Shown in pieces: positions 18,403 to 41,650 of a DNA stretch of 64,000 bases. The stretch lies in the NCBI RefSeq assembly GCF_003991155.1, contig NZ_CP031293.1; one strand, written 5' to 3'. The notes beneath the pieces were generated by a model that saw only the letters and a program-made list of their open reading frames with translations, was not told where the DNA came from and did not search any database. Position 1 is the stretch's first letter; each line of letters opens with the position of its first letter. This DNA is from Escherichia coli. GTDB lineage: Bacteria; Pseudomonadota; Gammaproteobacteria; Enterobacterales; Enterobacteriaceae. Both the position numbers and the translations under genes were made by a program.

Positions 18403-21400
18403 TTAATAATGCTCCTCAATATACCCATACGCCTTCTGGAACAACTCTTTATCTTTCCCTAGTCCAAACTGGGCCAAGGTCAGTAAAAGCGCCTTTTGGA
18501 TTTCGCGCGGGCCACTGTTGGAATTTTGCCAGCCATCAAAGCGGGTAGCTTTCACAATTTTATCAATTTGCTCTACAACATCACCGATTAACTTAGGGGT
18601 AGTTTCCGGACGTGTTTCGAGGAAAAGCTTAGTCAACGCCTGTTTATTATCAGCTTCAGTTACTGGGCGCTCGCCCGTTTCGCGCTCGGCTTGAACGGTA
18701 TCTTTCGCTGCATCCAACAGGCCTTTCAACCAGTCAATGGCCTTGATAACACCAGCTTCATAGTCCTGACGCAGTTTTTCAAGGCGCTCGCCCAATGCCA
18801 CAAATTTAGGATCATGACTGCCGCGCAAACGTCCCATAAGATCAATCTCCAGGCGTTTGGCACGTTGTTCCTGCTCTTTAGCGGTCAGGGTAAAAATAGC
18901 GTGCTCGTCCATAACCAACTCGTCAATATCATCGCGAATACGATTGATATCAGTATGCTCATGGATCATCTTGATTGTTTCGGGGCCAAGGGCAGCCCAA
19001 ACAAGCGCACCTGTCTGCCCTACCGGACGCACCGATTCATAAATTTGCGCCAGCCATTTATAGTCCTGACGATAAGAGGTCAAAAAAGGATCTGGGTTGA
19101 TAGCTGACCATAACTTGGATAACACACCAAAGCTGGCAGCGAATTCATCGCGTTTCTCGTTGGTCGGCAGGCATTCCTGCGCGGCCATAATACCTTCAAA
19201 ACCAGCTATGGACCGATCCACACCAGGGAAGAAGGACAAACATTTATTCAGTTGTAACGGCAATAGCTCTTTAAATGCCTCAATTCCCTCTACAACTCCT
19301 TCAATTTCTTCAGGGTTATAGGCCAGAGCGGTACGCAGATTTTCGAAAACGCCGAGGTAGTCGATAATTAATCCCATGTCCTTGCGTACAGTATCGGTTT
19401 CGTACAACCGGTTGGTTCGGCACATGGCCTGAAGAAGAGTATGATCGCGTAGAGGCTTATCGAGGTACATGCAGTAGCAAATCGGGGCATCAAAACCCGT
19501 AAGCAGCTTGGCGGTTACGATAATAAGCTGTAATGGATGTTCAGGATCTTTAAAGCATTCAATCAGATCCTTTTGCACCTGTTCTTCGGCATCAATGTGC
19601 TGCCAGCGTTCAAAATCGACTTGTTTGACTGGCAGCTCCAACTCATCATGCCATTTAAGCCAATCCTTGTTGAGCTTGTCTTTTTTGCCACCCTCTTCAA
19701 CTTTAACCGGAGCCTGGTCAACGTTCATAACCACTTCAACCGCATCAAAACCAAGCTTTTCACCGAGCAAATAATACATCTGCACACAGGCTTCGCGATC
19801 GTATACCACAACCATGCCTTTCATCTTTTTCGGCATAACATGGTTGGTAAAATGCTCAGCAATATCATTACTCACCGCAGCCATACGCCTAGGGGATTTC
19901 AGCATGATTGCCAGCTTGCCTGCACGCCTGGACAATGCTGCTTTTTCTTCTTCATCCAGGTTGTTTTCGGTAGCCAGTTGCTCGAACTCTTCATTGATGG
20001 CATCACGATCCACTCGGAGTTCAGCCAGCCGAGGTTCGAACTTCACCGGGTTAGTTGCGCCATCCCGGATCGACTGCTTATAGCTATAGCGGCTCATATA
20101 GCGACCTGGATCTTCTTCGGCACCGAACAATTTGAACGTATTACGATCAATGCCAGAAATCGGAGTACCAGTCAGGCCATAGAAGTGGGCATTGGGCAAC
20201 GCCCAGCGCATTTTCTCGCCTAATCCCCCTTCCTGTGTACGGTGAGCTTCGTCAACCAACACAATGATATTGTCCCGGTTGTTCAGGCCATTAGGGTTGC
20301 TATCGTCAATTTCGATATCTTTAAATTTAAAGATGGTGGTGATTAAAATGCCACGGCTGTCTTGTTCTATGTATTCACCCAACTTTTTGCAGCTTTGCAC
20401 TTTAATCAGATTCTTAACGTCGGCTCCGCCAAAGGTCTCGTTAATTTGGCTGTCCAGATCTCGCCGGTCCACAACGATAAGTACCGTCGGGTTTTTTAAC
20501 GCATTATCGGCACGTAGCATTTTGGCGGCGTAAAGCATCAACAAGGATTTACCCGATCCCTGGAAATGCCAAATAAGACCTTTTTTTGGATAGCCTCTGC
20601 GAACACGCTCAACAATTTGTTTTGCAGCTTCAAATTGCGGATAACGCGGCAGGATTTTAACGCGTTTAGGTGGAGTATTTTTGCCCGTTTTGACGGTTGA
20701 AAATAATGCAAAAGATTCAAGTAACTGCAATAAGGTTTGTGGATTTAACAAACTCTCACAGCTGTTGAGTACCGATGCTAATCCCGGCAGAATTTCATCA
20801 CGAAGCTCAGTATTATGCCAGGGCCCCCAGTCTTTAACTCTGGCATTAATGGCACCATAGGCAAAGGTTTTTCCTTCGCTGGCAAAGCACAGCAAGTTAG
20901 GTACAAAGAAAGATTCAACATTTTTCCAGTAGTACTTTTTGCCACCCATGAAATCGGCAGCACCGTCTTGCCAGGTCACGCTGGGGCGTGTTGCGGTTTT
21001 AACTTCGCCCACTACTAGCGGTATGCCGTTCACATAAAGAACAATATCAAAATAGACTTCAGTGGCCGCGATATAGCGAACCTGCTGCGCCACCACAAAG
21101 TGGTTGTTCTCTATATTGTCAAAATCAATCAGATTGATGGTGATATGGTCGCCATTCTTACCAAAAGGCAAGGTTTTGTCGGCCATCAACCATTCCTGGA
21201 AGTTTTCATTGGCCTTTACCAAGCCGGTATGGCGGGCTTCTAAAACCACTCCTCGCAGTTTGTAAATGACCTCATCGGCATAGTCAGGCTGTCTGCCGAT
21301 ATCAGGGTTTAACGAACAAAGCGCGTCTTTTAGCCACTCATCAACGAAGATATCCTGCGCTTGTTTAGGCAGGTTTTCACCGTGGCAGTAAGTCCACTTG

Positions 21401-22633: not shown

Positions 22634-24133
22634 TTACTGCTCCACCTTGCTTTCAACGTTATATCCAAGCTCTGCAAGGCTCTGGAATAATTTATTAGTT
22701 TGCTTTTTCAACTGAGTACGGCTTACTTTCCACGCTTCAATCGCATGTTCAATATTATGTACTTCAGCGTTGTTTTGTGCTTGCACATACAGTGGAATTG
22801 AAAGGTTATAAAGGTTTTCTTTAATAGCTTCAATATTCACTAAAGAGGTTATATCGTTTTTTTTCTCCGGATTAAAATAAGCCTCGCATAATACCTCCAA
22901 ATCCTCATCGGATAAGCGACTATGAGCGCGTTCACGGGTAACATGCTCAACCCCGTTGATAAATAACACTTTATTTTTGCGTTCGGCAGGTTTATTGCAA
23001 TTAAGCACCACCACACAAGATTCCATCGGCGAGTTATAAAACAGATTTGGTCCCAAACCAATCACCGCTTCAATAATGTCCGATTCAATCACCTGTTTAC
23101 GAATGGCCTGCTCAGAATCACGGAACAGCACACCGTGTGGCCAGAGCATAGCAGCACGACCGGTATCGGGTTTTAAACTTTTAATTATATGGGTATAAAA
23201 AGCATAATCAGCGCAGCCCTGCGGTGGGACACCATAAAGATTTCGACCATACGGATCAGCAGCAAACTTGTCACGATTCCATTTTTTAATGGAGTACGGT
23301 GGGTTGGCAAAAATCACATCAAACTGCTTGAGCCGATCGTTTTCAATAAACTTTGGCTCAGCCAAAGTATCACCACGCAGCACATCAAACTCTTCAATAT
23401 CGTGCAGGAACATATTCATACGGGCGATTGCGGATGTCAGCAGGTTCACTTCCTGACCATAAAGGTGCACAGAGCGCCACTCTTCCCCTCTAGCACGCAG
23501 ATCCATCACTGCATTTAGCAACATCCCACCTGTGCCACACGTTGGATCATAGGCGGTTTCACCCGGTTTTAAGCCCATAATGCGCGTCATTAAATGCACG
23601 ACTGTTCGGTTGGTGTAGAACTCTGCTGCCGTATGACCGGAATCATCAGCGAACTTTTTAATCAGGTATTCGTAGGCCTCACCAAGATCATCCTGAGCGA
23701 CAGATTTAATGCCTAGCGGAATTTGACTGAAATGTTCAATCAGATCAGCCAGCAGATGATCGGGCAGGCGCTCTTTATTGGTCCACTGCGCATCACCGAA
23801 GACGCCATGTAAACGCGGATTATTGGCTTCAATTAGTCGAAGCGCATTCTGGATCGCTTCACCAATGTTTTTACTGGTATTGCGTACCTTTTCCCAACTG
23901 GCTTCAGAGGGAATGTTGAAACGGTGAAACATCGGCATGGCGGCATATTCAGCATCACCTTCATGGAGTTCCAGCGCTTCGTTATATTCTTCCAGATAGA
24001 CATCTGACAGGCGTTTGTAAAACAGCAACGGGAAGATATACTGCTTGTAGTCTGATGCGTCAATTTGGCCACGAAGAAATTCGGCGGCTCCCCAGAGCAG
24101 CTCTTCCAGCTTTTTATTACTCATAGTACTCAT
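22634..24133 (-). CDS. hsdM: type I N6-adenine methyltransferase subunit, paralogue B (499 aa)
   Basis: Motif I YDPTCGTGGMLL, motif IV FANPPYSIKKW; start overlaps stop of upstream hsdM paralogue (24130-24133). Confidence 0.85.
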   Translation of the reverse strand: MSTMSNKKLEELLWGAAEFLRGQIDASDYKQYIFPLLFYKRLSDVYLEEYNEALELHEGDAEYAAMPMFHRFNIPSEASWEKVRNTSKNIGEAIQNALRLIEANNPRLHGVFGDAQWTNKERLPDHLLADLIEHFSQIPLGIKSVAQDDLGEAYEYLIKKFADDSGHTAAEFYTNRTVVHLMTRIMGLKPGETAYDPTCGTGGMLLNAVMDLRARGEEWRSVHLYGQEVNLLTSAIARMNMFLHDIEEFDVLRGDTLAEPKFIENDRLKQFDVIFANPPYSIKKWNRDKFAADPYGRNLYGVPPQGCADYAFYTHIIKSLKPDTGRAAMLWPHGVLFRDSEQAIRKQVIESDIIEAVIGLGPNLFYNSPMESCVVVLNCNKPAERKNKVLFINGVEHVTRERAHSRLSDEDLEVLCEAYFNPEKKNDITSLVNIEAIKENLYNLSIPLYVQAQNNAEVHNIEHAIEAWKVSRTQLKKQTNKLFQSLAELGYNVESKVEQ

Positions 24134-25629
24134 ACCTCGAAACCTTCTTTGATAAGCAGGGCCTCCAGCTCCTCTTCTGCTTTTTCCAGCTCAGCCAGCT
24201 TCCGTTGAAAATCTTTGAGCGCCTCTTCCACAGTGATGGTTTCTTCTTCGAGTGGCTTTTGCACATAACGAGCAATATTTAGATTGAAGTCATTTTCTTC
24301 AATCTCCTTCAGAGAAACCCAGCGTGCAACGCCTTCGATTTCTTTTGCATCTGGCCCTTGTTGCGCCTGGTCATGATAGATTTGGTATATTTCATCGGCC
24401 TGCTTGTTGGACAGCGTATTCTGCGCACGTCCCTTGGTATAGATTTCTTCAGCATTGATGATCAATACATGATCTTTATGCGCGGCCGGACGTGATTTAC
24501 GCAGCACCAAAATACACGCAGGAATCCCAGTCCCATAGAACAGGTTGGAAGCAACACCAATAATCGCCACAATGCGATTCTCTTGCAGTAATTTGGTTCG
24601 AATTGCCCCCTCTGCGCCGCCACGAAACAGCACACCATGAGGTAATACGACTGCCATACGTCCATTGTCGTTAAGTGAAGCAAACATATGCTGCACCCAG
24701 GCAAAATCACCATTTGTTTTAGGCGCCAGGCCATATTGCTTACGGCCATAGGGATCGTTCGACCACAGATCGTATCCCCATTCTTTTAAGCTAAATGGTG
24801 GGTTGGCAACAACGCAGTCAAAGGTTTCTAAACGATCGCTTTTTAAAAATTTAGGTTCGCGTAAAGTATCCCCTCGGACAATATCGAAATCTTCCTGTCC
24901 ATGCAGGAACAGATTCATACGCGCAATAGCTTCCGTCGTTAAGTTCTTTTCCTGACCCTTGATTTTTAGTAAACGCGGATCACCACCATTTTCTTTTACA
25001 TGGTGGATGGTCTCAAGCAGCATACCACCGGTACCACAGGCGGGATCGTAGACACTCTCACCGGCTTTTGGATCAAGAATGTTAACCATCAAACGAACGA
25101 TAGTTCGTGGGGTATAGAACTCACCGGCTTTCTTATTGGCTTTGTCTGCAAAGCGTTTGATCAGATACTCGTATGCGCGCCCCATATCATCGTCACGGAC
25201 ACTAGAAACGCCAAGGTTCACCTTATTGAAGTGATTGAGTAACGTAGCCAGTAACTCATCAGAAAGGCGTTCTTTATTGGTCCAGCTGGCATCGCCAAAA
25301 ATGCCATGCAGTTTAGGGTTTGCCAGTTCTATACCACGGAAGGACTCTTTTAAAGCCTGACCGATGTCCTTGGTCTCAGCGAAAACATCGCGCCAGTGGC
25401 AATTTTCAGGTATCTGAATACGGTGAAACATCTTGCCCTTGGCAAGCTCTGCATCCCCAATGCTCTCCATCGCATCGGCAAATTCTTCGTCATACACGTC
25501 ACAAATGCGCTTGAAGAACAGGATGGGGAAAATGTACGTTTTGTAATCTGACGCATCAATGGGCCCTGTAATAATATGGGCTGCATGCCATAGATGGGCC
25601 TCGAGATCTTTTAGGTTAATCAGTGTCAT
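24130..25629 (-). CDS. hsdM: type I N6-adenine methyltransferase subunit, paralogue A (500 aa)
   Basis: ORF 24130..25731 trimmed to MTLINLKDLEAHLW; motif I YDPACGTGGMLL, motif IV VANPPFSLKEW; homologous over full length to paralogue B. Confidence 0.85.
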   Translation of the reverse strand: MTLINLKDLEAHLWHAAHIITGPIDASDYKTYIFPILFFKRICDVYDEEFADAMESIGDAELAKGKMFHRIQIPENCHWRDVFAETKDIGQALKESFRGIELANPKLHGIFGDASWTNKERLSDELLATLLNHFNKVNLGVSSVRDDDMGRAYEYLIKRFADKANKKAGEFYTPRTIVRLMVNILDPKAGESVYDPACGTGGMLLETIHHVKENGGDPRLLKIKGQEKNLTTEAIARMNLFLHGQEDFDIVRGDTLREPKFLKSDRLETFDCVVANPPFSLKEWGYDLWSNDPYGRKQYGLAPKTNGDFAWVQHMFASLNDNGRMAVVLPHGVLFRGGAEGAIRTKLLQENRIVAIIGVASNLFYGTGIPACILVLRKSRPAAHKDHVLIINAEEIYTKGRAQNTLSNKQADEIYQIYHDQAQQGPDAKEIEGVARWVSLKEIEENDFNLNIARYVQKPLEEETITVEEALKDFQRKLAELEKAEEELEALLIKEGFEV

Positions 25630-25872
25630 TGTTGTCTCTTTTCGATCCTGCAGTGCTTGAACTCTCAGCAACTCATGGATTTCACAGTAAAAAAGCAAGT
25701 AAAGCGATTCCACAACCACCTGAGCGTTCAATATGTATGACGCCTTTACCCAAGTTGCTTAAATCAAGGAAATTGCCAGAGATAATACTCTGGCATCAGA
25801 ATGATACCAAGTTGAAGGGCTGATTTCCGCATCAATACCTTGTGGTAATAGGGGATTACTCTTTTACCCTTA

Positions 25873-26910
25873 TTGGCGCAAAATGGCGGCATTTCCTCAT
25901 TTCTCCATCGGAGCATCTTACGCGCTATAACCACTCTCGTTTTTTCCTATTCCCATGCAGATGAAGCACTACGCAATGAACTTGAGAAGCATCTCTCCCC
26001 GCTGAAGCGAACCGGGAAGATCACAACATGGCACGATCGCCGCATCGTTCCTGGTCAGGAGTTCGAACGTCAGATCGACCACTATTTTTCGCAAGCAGAT
26101 ATCATCCTGATCCTGATCAGCAGTGACTTTATTGCTTCTGATTACTGCTATCAGGTAGAGATGAAAAACGCACTGGAACGGCATAACCGGGGCGAGGCAG
26201 TGGTCATTCCGGTAATTTTAAGAGACTGTGCATGGCATCAGTTAGAATTCGGCAGCATTATGGCGGCGACTATCGACGGTAAACCCATCACTAAGTTTGC
26301 CACCCACGATGAAGGCTACGTTCAGGTCGTCGAGGCTGTCTCGCGTGCCATTGCCCGGATGGAAGCCAAAAAACCACAGCAAACCATACATATCCCTTCA
26401 CCGGCTCCGGCGAATCCGATCTTTCAGGGAGTAGATTCCGTTTTTACACCGCGTTCAAGCAACCTTACTCTACCCAAGAAATTTACCGATCTGGATAAAG
26501 ATCGTGCCAGACGTGAGGGCTTTGAATATGTTGCCCGCTATTTTGAAAATTCGTTAGATGAACTCAAAAAGCGCCACCCCGGATTAGATATCGATTTTAA
26601 TCGGCTTGATACAGATTCATTCACCTGTGCCGTGTATATCAATGGCAGTAAGGTCGGCCAATGTGGCATCTGGCGAGGCAATCAACATCATGGAATGGGA
26701 GATATCTGTTATAGCCAGGATAATGTTGTTCGAAACAGTATTAACGAAACTCTAAGCCTTGCTGATAACGGCCAGACTCTTGGTTTTCGTGCTCTGATGG
26801 GAGGCTTCAGTCGAGGAACTTCACGAGACGAACTATTGACCAATGAAGGTATGTCGGAACATCTCTGGGAAATGTTCTTCGGGCTAATCAAGCAAAGAAT
26901 GTCCCGATAA
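25873..26910 (+). CDS. TIR-domain protein with uncharacterised ~180-aa C-terminal domain
   Basis: TIR-like N-terminus (VFSYSHADE..., WHDRRIVPGQEF, ADIILILISSDFIASDYCYQVEM with a Glu at the expected catalytic position); only in-frame start is TTG at 25873 and no clear Shine-Dalgarno, so the N-terminus is uncertain. Confidence 0.65.
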   Translation: MAQNGGISSFLHRSILRAITTLVFSYSHADEALRNELEKHLSPLKRTGKITTWHDRRIVPGQEFERQIDHYFSQADIILILISSDFIASDYCYQVEMKNALERHNRGEAVVIPVILRDCAWHQLEFGSIMAATIDGKPITKFATHDEGYVQVVEAVSRAIARMEAKKPQQTIHIPSPAPANPIFQGVDSVFTPRSSNLTLPKKFTDLDKDRARREGFEYVARYFENSLDELKKRHPGLDIDFNRLDTDSFTCAVYINGSKVGQCGIWRGNQHHGMGDICYSQDNVVRNSINETLSLADNGQTLGFRALMGGFSRGTSRDELLTNEGMSEHLWEMFFGLIKQRMSR

Positions 26911-26925
26911 TTTGCCATATCACAG

Positions 26926-26947
26926 TCGGGCATACTGCCCGATTTTT
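26926..26947 (+). terminator. rho-independent terminator downstream of the TIR gene
   Basis: Stem TCGGGCA/TGCCCGA with 3-nt loop followed by TTTTT. Confidence 0.65.
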
Positions 26948-27094
26948 GTGCTGTCATTATTGGCAATATCTCAATAGGCGTTGAGAAATGGTGCAATTTA
27001 ATCTTGCCAGAGCGCTGTTACTTGGGGACGAAATTAATGGGCTCCTGCTGTAGTTACAGCAACGCCTGTAAATACAAAAATAGGCGTTGCAAAT

Positions 27095-28150
27095 TCATGC
27101 TGGCAAATACGTTTTCTTAAGCGGCACCAATAGCTTAGTCTCTATATCCACTTGCTCATAGTTTTCAACTAACGCGCGTACCAAATCATCCAGCGTCCAT
27201 AGCGTCAACGGGATTGTAGAACGATCGGCCTCATAACGCGCATCCTTGCTGAATCCGCCGGTACTGACATACAGCCCGCGATCGTCTTTATGGCGGCCAC
27301 CGATAAAGCTACGGATTTGCTGGCTGCTCATCTGTTCCCGCCGGTGCTTCACCTCAACAATAATGCGCGGATTTTCAAACCCAAATCCGTCAGGCGAAGC
27401 AATGATGTCTTTCCCACGGTCAGCACCCGCAGGCGATACCTGAGTTTTATATCCCATGCTGCGTAACACGCCAGCGACCAGATTCTGCATCTCATCCCAG
27501 TCGAGACGGTTGATACGATCCTTGATGCCTTCAAAAGCGATCATTTCCATGTCGCGCAGAGGATTAGAAACGACCTCATCCTCTTCACCTGAAACAGGTA
27601 CTTCCGGCACGATATCTGAGACAGGCTTATTGCCCTGCACTAATTCATTCACAGCAAAATCAGGCACCTGAAAAACTGTCAGCGTTGAACCAAGGGTGTT
27701 TCTAGTTGCATCACTCAGACTATCGCGCTTAATCTCTTCCGCATTCCACTTCACTTTACGGGCGATGCCCATGCCATCTTCAAGCCACTCGGCATGAAAC
27801 TCAAAATCTGACGCTATTTTCCCTATTAAATAGGTCCGATTAGAAGGTGAATAAGTGATAGCCCAGTCGCCTTTCTGCATTTCATTCACAAAGCGCCAGA
27901 CCTGAGAAGCTCCAGAACGAACTGTGCCTGGCTTAGTCTGTGGCTCAAGCTCCTGATACCGGGTAAACAACTGCTCTCTTGAGCATCCAGGTTTCACATA
28001 GGGAGCGAGCTGCGACCAACCAATTGCAACAACCTGTTTGTCTCTGAAGTCGTCGTACAATTTTCCGCCATCACCGCGGATCATCCACATCTTAGTCGCC
28101 ACAATAATTCCTTCTGAAAATACTTCATCGTTATACCGGGACGTGATCAT
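27095..28150 (-). CDS. Mrr-family (PD-(D/E)xK) restriction endonuclease with N-terminal PUA/EVE-like putative modified-base reader; probable type IV enzyme
   Basis: C-terminal domain alignable with E. coli Mrr catalytic region (DIIASPDGFG...IIVEVKHRR...LYVSTGGFS); start set at ATG 28150 preceded by AAGGTGG; N-terminal RFVNEMQKGDWAITYS resembles EVE-domain core. Confidence 0.7.
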   Translation of the reverse strand: MITSRYNDEVFSEGIIVATKMWMIRGDGGKLYDDFRDKQVVAIGWSQLAPYVKPGCSREQLFTRYQELEPQTKPGTVRSGASQVWRFVNEMQKGDWAITYSPSNRTYLIGKIASDFEFHAEWLEDGMGIARKVKWNAEEIKRDSLSDATRNTLGSTLTVFQVPDFAVNELVQGNKPVSDIVPEVPVSGEEDEVVSNPLRDMEMIAFEGIKDRINRLDWDEMQNLVAGVLRSMGYKTQVSPAGADRGKDIIASPDGFGFENPRIIVEVKHRREQMSSQQIRSFIGGRHKDDRGLYVSTGGFSKDARYEADRSTIPLTLWTLDDLVRALVENYEQVDIETKLLVPLKKTYLPA

Positions 28151-28212
28151 TCCATTCAGCCACCTTATCCAGGGGAAAAACACCGATAAGATGGCTAATC
28201 AAAATGTCTGTT

Positions 28213-31200
28213 CTAAACCTGACGCCTATCAAGACTATTATAAATAGCCTCAATCTCACCTTTCAGGTTATCACCAGAGTAAACCATCGATGTATCGTAT
28301 CGTTCATATCGCGCTTCCCGTGTCGCACTAAACCAGTTGAACGATCCCACGCATAGCAAACCATCATCACCAATAACAATTTTGCTATGAACACGGTTTA
28401 CCAGCTTTGTAGCAATACCCAGCGCATTCAGTTTCTCCAGCGCCGCTTTAAGGTTCTGCTGCTTCTCTTTTCGCTTCTCAAAATCTTTATGTTCAGTGTT
28501 GTAGCTTCTGTCAGTGACTATCGTGACGTTAATACCACGTGAACACGCCGCAATCATGGAATCAAGAAAACCCGTTTGCTCCAGCTTTTGCCAGGTCAGC
28601 CATGGAGAAACTATCGTGATGTGTTTATCGGTATTTTCAAACGTCTGATTCAGGAAGTTATCATGCTGCTCCACACCATGAAGTGTGTAGATTTTGGTCT
28701 CGGAAGTTTTTAAATCCTTACGCTCTTTATAATCAAAAGAGAGCGCATTCTTCTCGAACTCAAAGAGATATTTTGCCAGCAATCCTCGCGGAGATGAGGG
28801 AGCCTGGATCTCAAACAGATCCATATCGCCGAAGACCAGGAAGCTATCCTTCGCACGGGAGACTGCAACATTCAGCATGCTGTTATCGCTATCAATAAAC
28901 CCGCCGTCTTCATGTTTTGAATAGACTGGCGAGAATATAACAATCGCTCTTTCCGCTCCCTGAAGAGAGTGCACGGTGCCCACTGTGAGCGACTTTTCAT
29001 TCGCGCCCGTACTGATACCTTGTTTACCCAGCGCCTGTTTTATAGTGGATACCTGCGCGCTAAAAGGCGTCACGATACCGACAACTTCATGAAGCGATTT
29101 GCCGTAATGCGCTTCAATATTTTGCTGGTTCTCTGCCAACCAGGCCGCTATCGTTTCAGCCTCAAGCAAATTATATCTACTTCCACTACTTGCCTGCTCT
29201 CCTTTACCATCAATATGGAGATAACCCATTGCGGGCATTAAATTGCTCTCTTCACGCCCTCTTTTAGGCAACAACTTACCGTGATAGCAGAGCGTATTAC
29301 AGTATCCAATAATATTATCGAAGCACCGGCGGTGTTCATATAGGTACATACCACGAGCCAGTTCGGGATCATATTGATAGCGCGAAGCAAACTGCGCTAT
29401 TTTCATAACGCTGCCAGATGCGGCACTTTTACCAAGGTCTGCGATTGCCGTATATTTCTCGGTAATCTCTTCTTGCGTACTGCCAGACAGAATTTTTTCC
29501 GCCAGCATGTTACCGACATCAATCGCGGGAGCAATACTCCATATTGGCGGGATCTGCTCCGTATCGCCAATCACTAATGCCTTCTTAGCTAATGCAAACG
29601 AGGCAGCAGCCACTTCAGGAAGCACCTGCCCGGCTTCATCGACAATGAGTAAATCGGCAAAATCATACAAATAACTTTTCTCGAATTTACGTTGTCCTTT
29701 GTGCTCACTTATCTGCATATTGCCGGGCAGCATATAGCATGTCATCACCACACATGGAGTGAGTTTCATTCGACGTTGCCAACGGGCGGTTACCCCTTTA
29801 GCGCCTTGTTTCTTCTTCTCTTCCTGCAGATCATCAATTCTGGCCATATCCATCAGCCAACGACCTTCCCAGTAGTGAGTCGTCAGTAAAAATGCAGGGA
29901 AGCGAATCTGCGTATCAGCCAGTTCATCGGCCTGTGAGAAGCTCAGTTCCTCGTCGCCCTCATACCCTAAATCAAATGCCAGCCTCTGCCACTCCTGAAC
30001 CGCCTGCTGTTCTTTAAGAACGATTTCATGGGCGGAGTCAATCTGCTGCCGGTATGTTGTTTGCTCGCGCTCAGCGGAATTGAGCAGCCCATCAATATTA
30101 CGTTCGATAGTTTCAGGATCAGACCACTGATTTCCTGCAATCAGCGCGCCTAATTTATCTTCGAGAAACAGCTGTATTTGGTACTGTCGCTTATTGCGAA
30201 CCGCCGGGAGCCAGGAAAATAATGAATAGATCAGTGATTCACCGGCGCGATATTTTTTCCATTCCGTTTTAGCACTCTTCAGTAGAGTGACTTTTTGTTC
30301 TTGTCCGGAAAGTAATTTATTTAAATTATCGAGATATTGCTCAATATCATTAGCAATAAGCTCACGCGCAGCCCGAATCTGGCTTAACATTTGCCATGTT
30401 GCGTTCAGTCTTATCAGTTGCTCGGATTTTGCTGCCAACTGACCATGCAGGAGTTCAATGATCTTTTCAGGGGATGAACACTCTTTTTCAGGAAAGGCTG
30501 CCTTAGCCTTCTCCAGATAAAACAGCAGTGCATCCTCTACATACTCTTTTGACTCAACCTGGGTGAAGAAATCTTCAGTTTGATATTTTTTGGCTGCCTC
30601 AGCTTTACGAGTGCTTGAGGGAAAATAAGCGCCGAAGCTTTTCAGCTCTGGCAACCATCGTCCGGCCATCGCACCTGAACCTTGCGAAAAGTCTTTCCCG
30701 AATGCCTCAATAATGTTCGTTACAGCCTGGTTATTCGTTGAAGTCGCGATAATAACCGGAGGCTCAGATTTTTCGAGAGCTGCTCTGGCCCACTGCGTGG
30801 CGATGATAGAAAGCACCAGCGTGGTTTTTCCGGTTCCCGGAGGTCCATTAACAGCAAGGATATCGCCATGTCTTGCATCCAGAAAATGGCTTAAGGCATC
30901 GCGCTGAGCCTTTGCCAGCGGAAACTTATCTCCGGAGTGTCCAAGCCTGTCGCTGAATTTTGCTCCTGGGGCCAGCAAAGACTCTGCAGCATGAACCTCT
31001 CGCGAGGCGAAGCGATTGAAGAGCGGCACATCCTTCTTGCAAACAAGCAGGTGATCATAAAGAGAAAGGATATGGAAACTGGCACCGCCAGATTGCGCCG
31101 TTTTAACAATATAACCGTGCTCAGCGAGTACATATTGCTCAGGATTTTTAATCCAGTCGCCGGCAACATTCTTCAGCAGCCTCTCTGAATCATCCAGATA

Positions 31201-31728
31201 TTGACGCCACTCCTGCTGCAAGGCTGCATATCGTGCTTCCCGTTCTTCATCCGTTTCGGCAGTCTTATCAATGCTGTCATCAAAGTTGATAGAGAACGAG
31301 GTATGGATTGTCTTGTATTTGTCATACTGCCCAATATCACCAATCGAAAATGCTCCTTTTGGCAAAGGTTCAAGCAGGTCTCTGGGAATGGAGGTCGCTG
31401 GCGTCGGATATAAAAAACCCTCACGGCTTAGCAAGGCTGGCGTCACTAGCGGGGTAACAATATCAGGTGCGCCTGCGGAACGGTCCTTACCATGCTGCAG
31501 TAACCGAAAATAAACTTTTGGGCGCAAGACGACATCGACCGTTTCGACATCGTCTTTTTCTCCCTCAAAAAATTTACTGACAATCGCTTCGTCAAGACGT
31601 CCCGCCGCTATCCCATGCCAGTGAGTGAAATTTTTGGCGTCTTTCCGTTCAAAACTGCCCTTTCCTGACTCAGCATCTGCAAGCGAGTTGCGCCAGTATG
31701 AGGCAAACCCTAAAGCATTTTCATCCAT
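28213..31728 (-). CDS. SF1 (Upf1/DNA2-like) helicase fused to C-terminal PLD-family nuclease, 1171 aa; architecture resembles type II Mokosh
   Basis: Walker [13 protein letters not shown], Walker [10 protein letters not shown], helicase motifs [16 protein letters not shown] and [12 protein letters not shown]-terminal HKD motif [20 protein letters not shown]. Confidence 0.75.
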
Positions 31729-41564: not shown

Positions 41565-41650
41565 TCTGTGCCCCTCACCCTAACCCTAACCCTAACCCTA
41601 ACCCTAACCCTCTCCCCAAAGGGGCGAGGGGACCGTTCGAACTCGTATTT
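41565..41650. repeat. REP-like element containing a (CCCTAA)5 hexanucleotide microsatellite (41578-41607)
   Basis: CCCCTCACCCTAACCCTAACCCTAACCCTAACCCTAACCCTCTCCCCAAAGGGGCGAGGGG; other copies of this element in the window (541-590, 45669-45705) carry one CCCTAA unit. Confidence 0.8.

Follow-up and report, generated by a model that had tools for sequence, protein, structure and literature searches.

Rho-dependent transcripts of Escherichia coli have been found to end directly after stable stem-loops that are devoid of U-rich tails (Dar and Sorek 2018, PMC6061677). The 3' end of the Mrr-like restriction endonuclease gene analysed here resembles such transcript ends in that a stable, GC-rich hairpin lies just downstream of the coding sequence and a U-rich tract is absent, while it resembles intrinsic terminators, including bidirectional ones, in that the GC-rich hairpin is situated a few nucleotides from the stop codon and between two convergent genes. 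The gene is contained in the 64-kb stretch of E. coli DNA that was analysed in this study and is referred to below as the window, for which an original prediction had drawn attention to an 11-nt motif present twice in direct orientation around a short palindrome, and had proposed that this arrangement could be a terminator for the Mrr-like gene or a protein-binding site. We consider it likely that the spacer between the two convergent genes comprises two independent gene-end elements and nothing that requires a direct repeat, the hairpin of the Mrr-like gene probably having a terminator or protective role and the first copy of the motif being a chance match.

The locus and its modules

The stretch at 26850-27150 of the window is 100% identical to many complete E. 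coli genomes and belongs to an island site flanked by nanS/fim on one side and a tRNA-Leu on the other. In a locus identical to the window (L001), an AAA ATPase gene, an N6 methylase gene and a type I R-M system (hsdR, hsdS and two hsdM genes) are followed by a TIR gene on the plus strand, the Mrr-like gene (annotated as 'restriction endonuclease') and a gene for a 1171-aa helicase-PLD protein, both on the minus strand, and then by a hypothetical gene and an HNH gene. The left member of the convergent pair is the ThsB-like TIR-domain gene (25927..26910, plus strand), a RefSeq CDS in L001 whose product matches Pfam TIR_2 (5e-14) and, over its full length, PADLOC ThsB1 (2e-153), with no ThsA-like gene among its annotated neighbours in this locus. 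Its partner is the Mrr-like gene (27095..28084, minus strand; RefSeq CDS, Pfam Mrr_cat 2e-23, PADLOC candidate family PDC-S02 1.4e-82), beyond which the helicase-PLD gene (28213-31728, minus strand) is assigned by PADLOC to MkoC of Mokosh type II. The Pfam domains of all three proteins agree with the PADLOC calls, and the TIR and Mrr-like genes are convergent.

The spacer between these two genes measures 184 nt and occurs in 100 of 5426 E. coli genomes, at a single place in each, as does a 49-nt hairpin query (E of 1 or less). Small open reading frames in the spacer are confined to frames of 21-38 aa that are without support; a distant search of a plasmid collection with the 184-nt spacer returned only chance matches of 27-38 nt (E of 0.1 or more), and an Rfam scan of 26000-28000 yielded no relevant match.

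The genes for the HNH endonuclease, the hypothetical protein, MkoC (Mokosh type II) and the Mrr-like protein (PDC-S02) form a constant block beside the tRNA-Leu (window 27095-31728 onward; L030), and the slot beyond the Mrr-like gene varies by genome, being occupied by the TIR gene with the type I R-M system, by a DUF3780/DUF1156/PLD system, by PLD with BREX or by HsdR. Alignments place the zone in which homology breaks off, separating the Mrr-gene module from the variable DNA beside it, at 27021..27052: genomes of the HB-Coli0 type align with the window only from 27052, and in the metagenome contigs L054 and L060 the alignment extends no further than 27040 and 27021, respectively. The TIR and Mrr-like genes are thereby shown to be separate modules joined at approximately 27021-27052 and not a functional pair. 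The HB-Coli0 and Citrobacter spacers beyond the hairpin (L030 5833-6008; L005 5021-5190) are mutually homologous though their neighbouring genes differ, and both retain, in TCGAGTGAATATTTAGTACC, the relic of a PLD-like gene's 3' end, the gene being intact in the BREX context designated type C (L036 3588-3650); this relic hints that the BREX-adjacent arrangement may be ancestral.

The TIR gene is divergent from an hsdM gene of the type I R-M system (24130-25731, minus strand), and of two TIR homologues (L033, L034) a 75%-identical one in strain G749 is likewise divergent from hsdM and another lies beside a DEAD/DEAH helicase, which suggests a recurring linkage of TIR and type I R-M genes. This hsdM is one of two full-length hsdM-like genes arranged in tandem (22634-24133 and 24130-25731, minus strand) with a 4-nt overlap, upstream of hsdS and hsdR, a two-methylase type I R-M layout that is unusual. 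In many strains the TIR gene is truncated, frameshifted or internally deleted (residues ~183-259 missing) and the adjacent Mrr-like gene is intact, examples being M11957 (L002), PCN033 (L003), A10 (L032) and the metagenome loci L044, L047, L048 and others; this pattern suggests that the TIR gene is decaying, or that it is dispensable on its own. The Mrr-like gene is itself interrupted by IS621 (IS110 family) in GF60 (L004 2431-2529) and 258E (L031 6787-8056), apparently at the same position (window ~27833) despite different neighbouring defence systems. Elsewhere in the window, positions 41572-41611 consist of 6.7 tandem copies of CCCTAA, the complement of the telomere-type hexamer TTAGGG; this array maps to ~L001 34720-34760, inside a hypothetical-protein CDS in the CP4-like part of the island.

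The stem-loop at the 3' end of the Mrr-like gene

The Mrr-like gene is followed by a conserved 3' stem-loop (27059..27090, minus strand), identified from an inverted repeat, from folds, from nine distinct variants and from an RNAalifold consensus. Its arms are GCAACGCCT(GT) at 27059-27069 and (AY)AGGCGTTGC at 27080-27090, of which GCAACGCCT (27059-27067) and AGGCGTTGC (27082-27090) constitute a 9-nt inverted repeat without mismatches, its halves separated by 14 nt. The hairpin begins 4 nt past the TGA stop codon, the gene (minus) strand reading TGA-AUUU-GCAACGCCU[A/G]U...loop...ACAGGCGUUGC, and the stem comprises 9-11 bp, of which 5-6 are G-C pairs. The second copy of the 11-nt motif (27079-27089) is the arm proximal to the stop codon, and the inverted partial copy that had been noted originally is the other arm.

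Among the 100 E. coli genomes with the junction, position 27081 within the stem is C in 49 and T in 50, and one genome (GF60) is different again, also with C. The T allele, carried by the window, forms 9 bp and an A.C mismatch on the gene strand, and the C allele forms 11 perfect bp; the window and C alleles have loops of 14 and 10 nt, respectively, and those of HB-Coli0 (4 nt) and Citrobacter (3 nt) are shorter. The predicted folding energy is -14.4 kcal/mol (z -3.2) for the window allele, -19.7 kcal/mol (z -5.2) for the perfect 11-bp stem of the C allele and -17.6 to -21.3 kcal/mol (z -3.7 to -5.5) for the other variants, and T at 27081 weakens the hairpin on the gene strand. Folding of the minus-strand 3' end, which the original prediction had named as its check, gives a stable hairpin across the variants (-14 to -21 kcal/mol, z -3.2 to -5.5). 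A window is expected to contain 0.23 perfect 11-bp hairpins, the form that the C allele takes, and the inverted repeat is beyond chance, unlike the direct repeat.

When the nine distinct variants were aligned, 92.6% of cells were paired as against 25-58% with a slid partner, and RNAalifold predicted the same helix on its own. Seven of the 11 pairs are invariant and there is one compensatory pair change; pair 16-43 is A-U in four sequences, G.U in three, U-A in one and U.U in one, the last being GF60, in which the Mrr-like gene is broken by IS621. The G.U cases pair on the gene-sense strand only. Shuffle controls for covariation were not significant with these nine variants, and the covariation is suggestive and no proof. 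Insertions and deletions alter the loop (3, 4, 9, 10 and 14 nt) and leave the stem intact, a pattern that favours a single-strand hairpin over a DNA operator of fixed geometry.

The core stem ACGCCTGT/ACAGGCGT is present after the Mrr-like gene in every neighbour context examined, i.e. TIR with type I R-M, the DUF1156/PLD system, PLD with BREX, HsdR and an IS-like flank. In HB-Coli0 and 258E, where the neighbour is the DUF3780/DUF1156/PLD system, the hairpin is a perfect 24-nt palindrome, CTACGCCTGTATATACAGGCGTAG, and in Citrobacter sp. NCU1, whose Mrr-like protein is 98% identical and whose neighbour is a type I HsdR, it reads ACGCCTGTTT-TTT-AAACAGGCGT. A metagenome scan using the pattern ACGCCTGTN{0,14}AYAGGCGTNGMAAA matched 43 loci; in 27 of these the matched hairpin lies a few nucleotides from where an Mrr-like gene of 98-100% amino-acid identity ends, and the remainder are unrelated chance hairpins. 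In type C contigs a convergent PLD-like gene, with BrxL and PglZ behind it, ends 27 nt past the hairpin, which is the sole element in the convergent gap of ~60 nt, and in type D contigs the hairpin, a 14-nt palindrome and the flank as far as window 27040 or 27021 are kept before the sequences diverge.

Among related loci the hairpin was found only beside the Mrr-like gene, and on this comparison it travels with that gene and not with the TIR gene. Most Mrr-like homologues of ~83% amino-acid identity, from other Enterobacterales (L007-L029), bear a different conserved 3' hairpin, AGCCATAYCGGTG...ACTGRTATGGCTTTAT, so that the present hairpin is confined to a narrow clade. A conserved TGTACGGATTTTAACTTGTGGGTACAAGTGCGGGTATAA segment comes after the AGCCATAYCGGTG..ACTGRTATGGCTTTAT hairpin in those homologues.

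The direct repeat, the short palindrome and rival readings

The motif AATAGGCGTTG does occur exactly twice on the plus strand, as had been claimed, with each copy one base away from its predicted position (26973-26983 in place of 26974-26984, and 27079-27089 in place of 27078-27088). The first copy (26973..26983, plus strand) lies within a weak local hairpin, TCTCAA-TAGGCG-TTGAGA (26969-26986), and the local fold around it is not separable from shuffles (z -0.2 and -1.1). This copy is seen in the TIR context only, outside every Mrr-side shared flank, and is absent beside TIR homologues elsewhere: because the 3' flanks of the homologues at 75-77% nucleotide identity (L033, L034) are unrelated and without the motif, it could not be linked to the TIR gene family. 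In 49 of the 100 genomes with the junction the sequence of the second copy is AACAGGCGTTG, and only 50 show the exact match to the first, the others agreeing at 10 of 11 positions. C at 27081 is also the base in HB-Coli0, Citrobacter sp. NCU1 and metagenome types C and D; since all outgroups have C, the T is derived, and the exact 11-nt match results from this recent C-to-T change. The sole other near-copy of AATAGGCGTTG in the window (18634-18644) was rejected as a third motif site and taken as chance because it is located within the hsdR coding sequence. In all loci compared the motif is found at homologous positions and otherwise at just a few scattered single sites, and the notion of a dispersed element found no support in this search of the window and related loci. 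An alternative pairing of the first copy with CAACGCCT was rejected as a working hypothesis, this competitor being 76 nt away as opposed to 14 nt for the real partner and the first copy showing no variation that would bear on it.

The palindrome GCTGTAGTTACAGC, with a 5-bp stem and a 4-nt loop as read in the sequence, is also present as predicted but at 27047-27060 and not at 27050-27063, where it adjoins the main hairpin. The inverted partial copy does not lie inside it, as had been thought: CAACGCCT, at 27060-27067, abuts the palindrome with an overlap of 1-2 nt. Window-type and type D flanks contain GCTGTAGTTACAGC and it is missing from the HB-Coli0, type C and Citrobacter flanks, for which reason it is no conserved part of the element.

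Several other readings of these sequences were weighed. That the direct AATAGGCGTTG copies are regulatory or partition-like protein sites (iteron-like), or the target-site duplication of a small inserted element, could be argued from the exact 11-mer twice within 184 nt, from a weak extension of the match to 17 of 22 positions and from the best direct self-alignment in the spacer alone (p ~0.02 for the window allele, a nominal value uncorrected for the number of spacers a reader looks at). For an ancestral-like allele, however, the p of this self-alignment is ~0.27. Non-tandem exact direct repeats of at least 11 nt within 150 nt number 6 in the 64-kb window where Markov simulations give 2.4 +/- 1.4, and the direct repeat is no more than chance; half of the genomes match at 10 of 11 positions only, and all outgroups bear the mismatching C. 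The 95 nt between the copies are single-copy, have no matches elsewhere and are without terminal inverted repeats (by eye), whereby the small inserted element was rejected, and the motif is undispersed. This reading is accordingly given very little probability, and a palindrome flanked by two direct repeats is an artefactual description, the copies residing in different homology modules and matching exactly only in the derived allele. The palindromic arms could alternatively be a double-stranded DNA operator at which a dimeric protein regulates the Mrr-like or MkoC genes, with half-sites ACGCCTGT/ACAGGCGT that are perfectly symmetric and strongly conserved, but the half-site spacing varies (0-4, 3, 9-10 and 14 nt) in a manner incompatible with fixed dimer geometry, the conserved 8-nt arms being spaced 4 nt apart in HB-Coli0, 7 nt in Citrobacter and 9-10 nt in the window, C and D types. 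The site is moreover at the 3' end of the operon and not at a promoter, the sole overlapping promoter-like match (27106..27077, minus strand) having been rejected since the T at 27081, which is specific to the window, is needed for its -10 hexamer. An inter-arm distance that varies among homologues (loops of 3, 4, 9-10 and 14 nt) suits an RNA hairpin and not an operator of fixed spacing, and the protein-binding site that had been proposed is thus unsupported; we find an operator highly implausible.

The neighbourhood of the hairpin raises two further readings. At least five different neighbouring systems abut the Mrr-like gene, and homology breakpoints lie 7-40 nt from the hairpin in several contexts, as might be expected of a recombination site at the fixed edge of a defence-cassette exchange slot, functionally like integron attC. 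The breakpoints nevertheless do not coincide (27021, 27040, 27052 and ~27055), HB-Coli0 and Citrobacter retain ~190 nt of homologous flank beyond the hairpin, including the relic of the PLD-like gene 3' end, and no recombinase adjoins the hairpin in the loci with neighbouring genes listed. The R''/R' consensus of attC sites is RYYYAAC/GTTRRRY, which the hairpin arms do not fit by eye, and an attC-like site was rejected. Such a recombination site is most improbable, and there is scarcely any likelihood that the hairpin marks, and perhaps promotes, the exchange point of the variable tRNA-Leu slot where unrelated defence systems replaced one another. The hairpin might instead act mainly on the plus strand, as a bidirectional or incoming-strand terminator that keeps antisense transcripts out of the Mrr-like gene, which we regard as unlikely. 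The near-perfect palindrome folds on both strands and in the window allele is more stable on the plus strand (-19.9 kcal/mol) than on the minus strand (-14.7 kcal/mol), the HB-Coli0 hairpin was called as a plus-strand terminator by the scan, with the T-run tail CAAATTTTTC, and the type C hairpin stands alone between two convergent genes. Against this, the plus-strand tail in the window, AAATTCAT, has no T run, in the Citrobacter and type D variants the tail reads AAAAC and the plus strand has an A.C mismatch in place of the G.U wobble, and the TIR gene already possesses a strong terminator upstream.

Termination and likeness to known gene ends

The TIR gene is predicted to end in its own canonical intrinsic terminator (26924..26950, plus strand), detected by the terminator scan as the stem-loop AGTCGGGCATACTGCCCGATT followed by TTTTGT, with 9 pairs, a loop of 3 and a T-rich tail (-15.1 kcal/mol, z -4.8; tail score -4.96). 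On the minus strand of the window the hairpin of the Mrr-like gene was not called by the same scan, a U tract (at least 5 T in 8) being absent 3' of the stem. Its gene-strand tail is UGUAACUA, and the tail scores (-2.7 in the window, -3.5 in HB-Coli0 and -2.7 in Citrobacter) are just slightly better than random (mean -2.07), the TIR terminator scoring -5.0. With regard to the other hallmarks of an intrinsic terminator, a GC-rich stem-loop does occur soon after the stop codon, and a short loop (~3-8 nt) is found in HB-Coli0 and Citrobacter, the loop of the window type being 10-14 nt. The original prediction of a terminator for the Mrr-like gene had therefore singled out the right object, a stable and conserved hairpin 4 nt past the stop, which is not of the canonical intrinsic type as it has no U tract.

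Returning to the reading that we prefer, the Mrr-like gene, as the last of the HNH, hypothetical, MkoC and Mrr-like module beside the tRNA-Leu, ends in the conserved GC-rich stem-loop at 27059-27090, and in the transcript this hairpin would most likely serve as a weak, U-poor terminator, as a block to 3'-to-5' exonucleases after Rho-dependent termination, or as both. Given that it is a near-perfect palindrome, it would also be expected to form in transcripts entering from the convergent neighbour. The hairpin would in this way provide the MkoC and Mrr-like transcription unit with a 3' boundary, and in E. coli and its relatives it offers a handy landmark for where the variable defence-gene slot of the tRNA-Leu island has its fixed edge. 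What had been noticed is an ordinary conserved gene-end hairpin of the Mrr-like gene together with a coincidental match 106 nt away; removal of the direct repeat as a false lead is of little significance beyond annotation.

Among the known structures with which the hairpin may be compared, intrinsic terminators are approached by the HB-Coli0 form, whose loop measures 4 nt and whose stem is followed by a T run on one strand, whereas the Mrr-gene strand is without a U tract and the window loop, at 10-14 nt, is long. Unlike REP/BIME elements, the hairpin occupies a single place per genome (in the 100 of 5426 genomes) and has no Rfam match, and its sequence is presumably unlike the REP consensus; like them, it is an intergenic imperfect palindrome at a gene 3' end that could stabilise the upstream mRNA. 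It differs from the class of Dar and Sorek in that the C-over-G bias is missing in two homologous contexts, the downstream minus-strand C/G ratio (rut-type bias) being 0.84-0.90 in the HB-Coli0 and Citrobacter flanks. In the window this ratio is 1.5-1.75 over 27060-26943, and the hairpin is followed on the gene strand by a C-rich, G-poor stretch.
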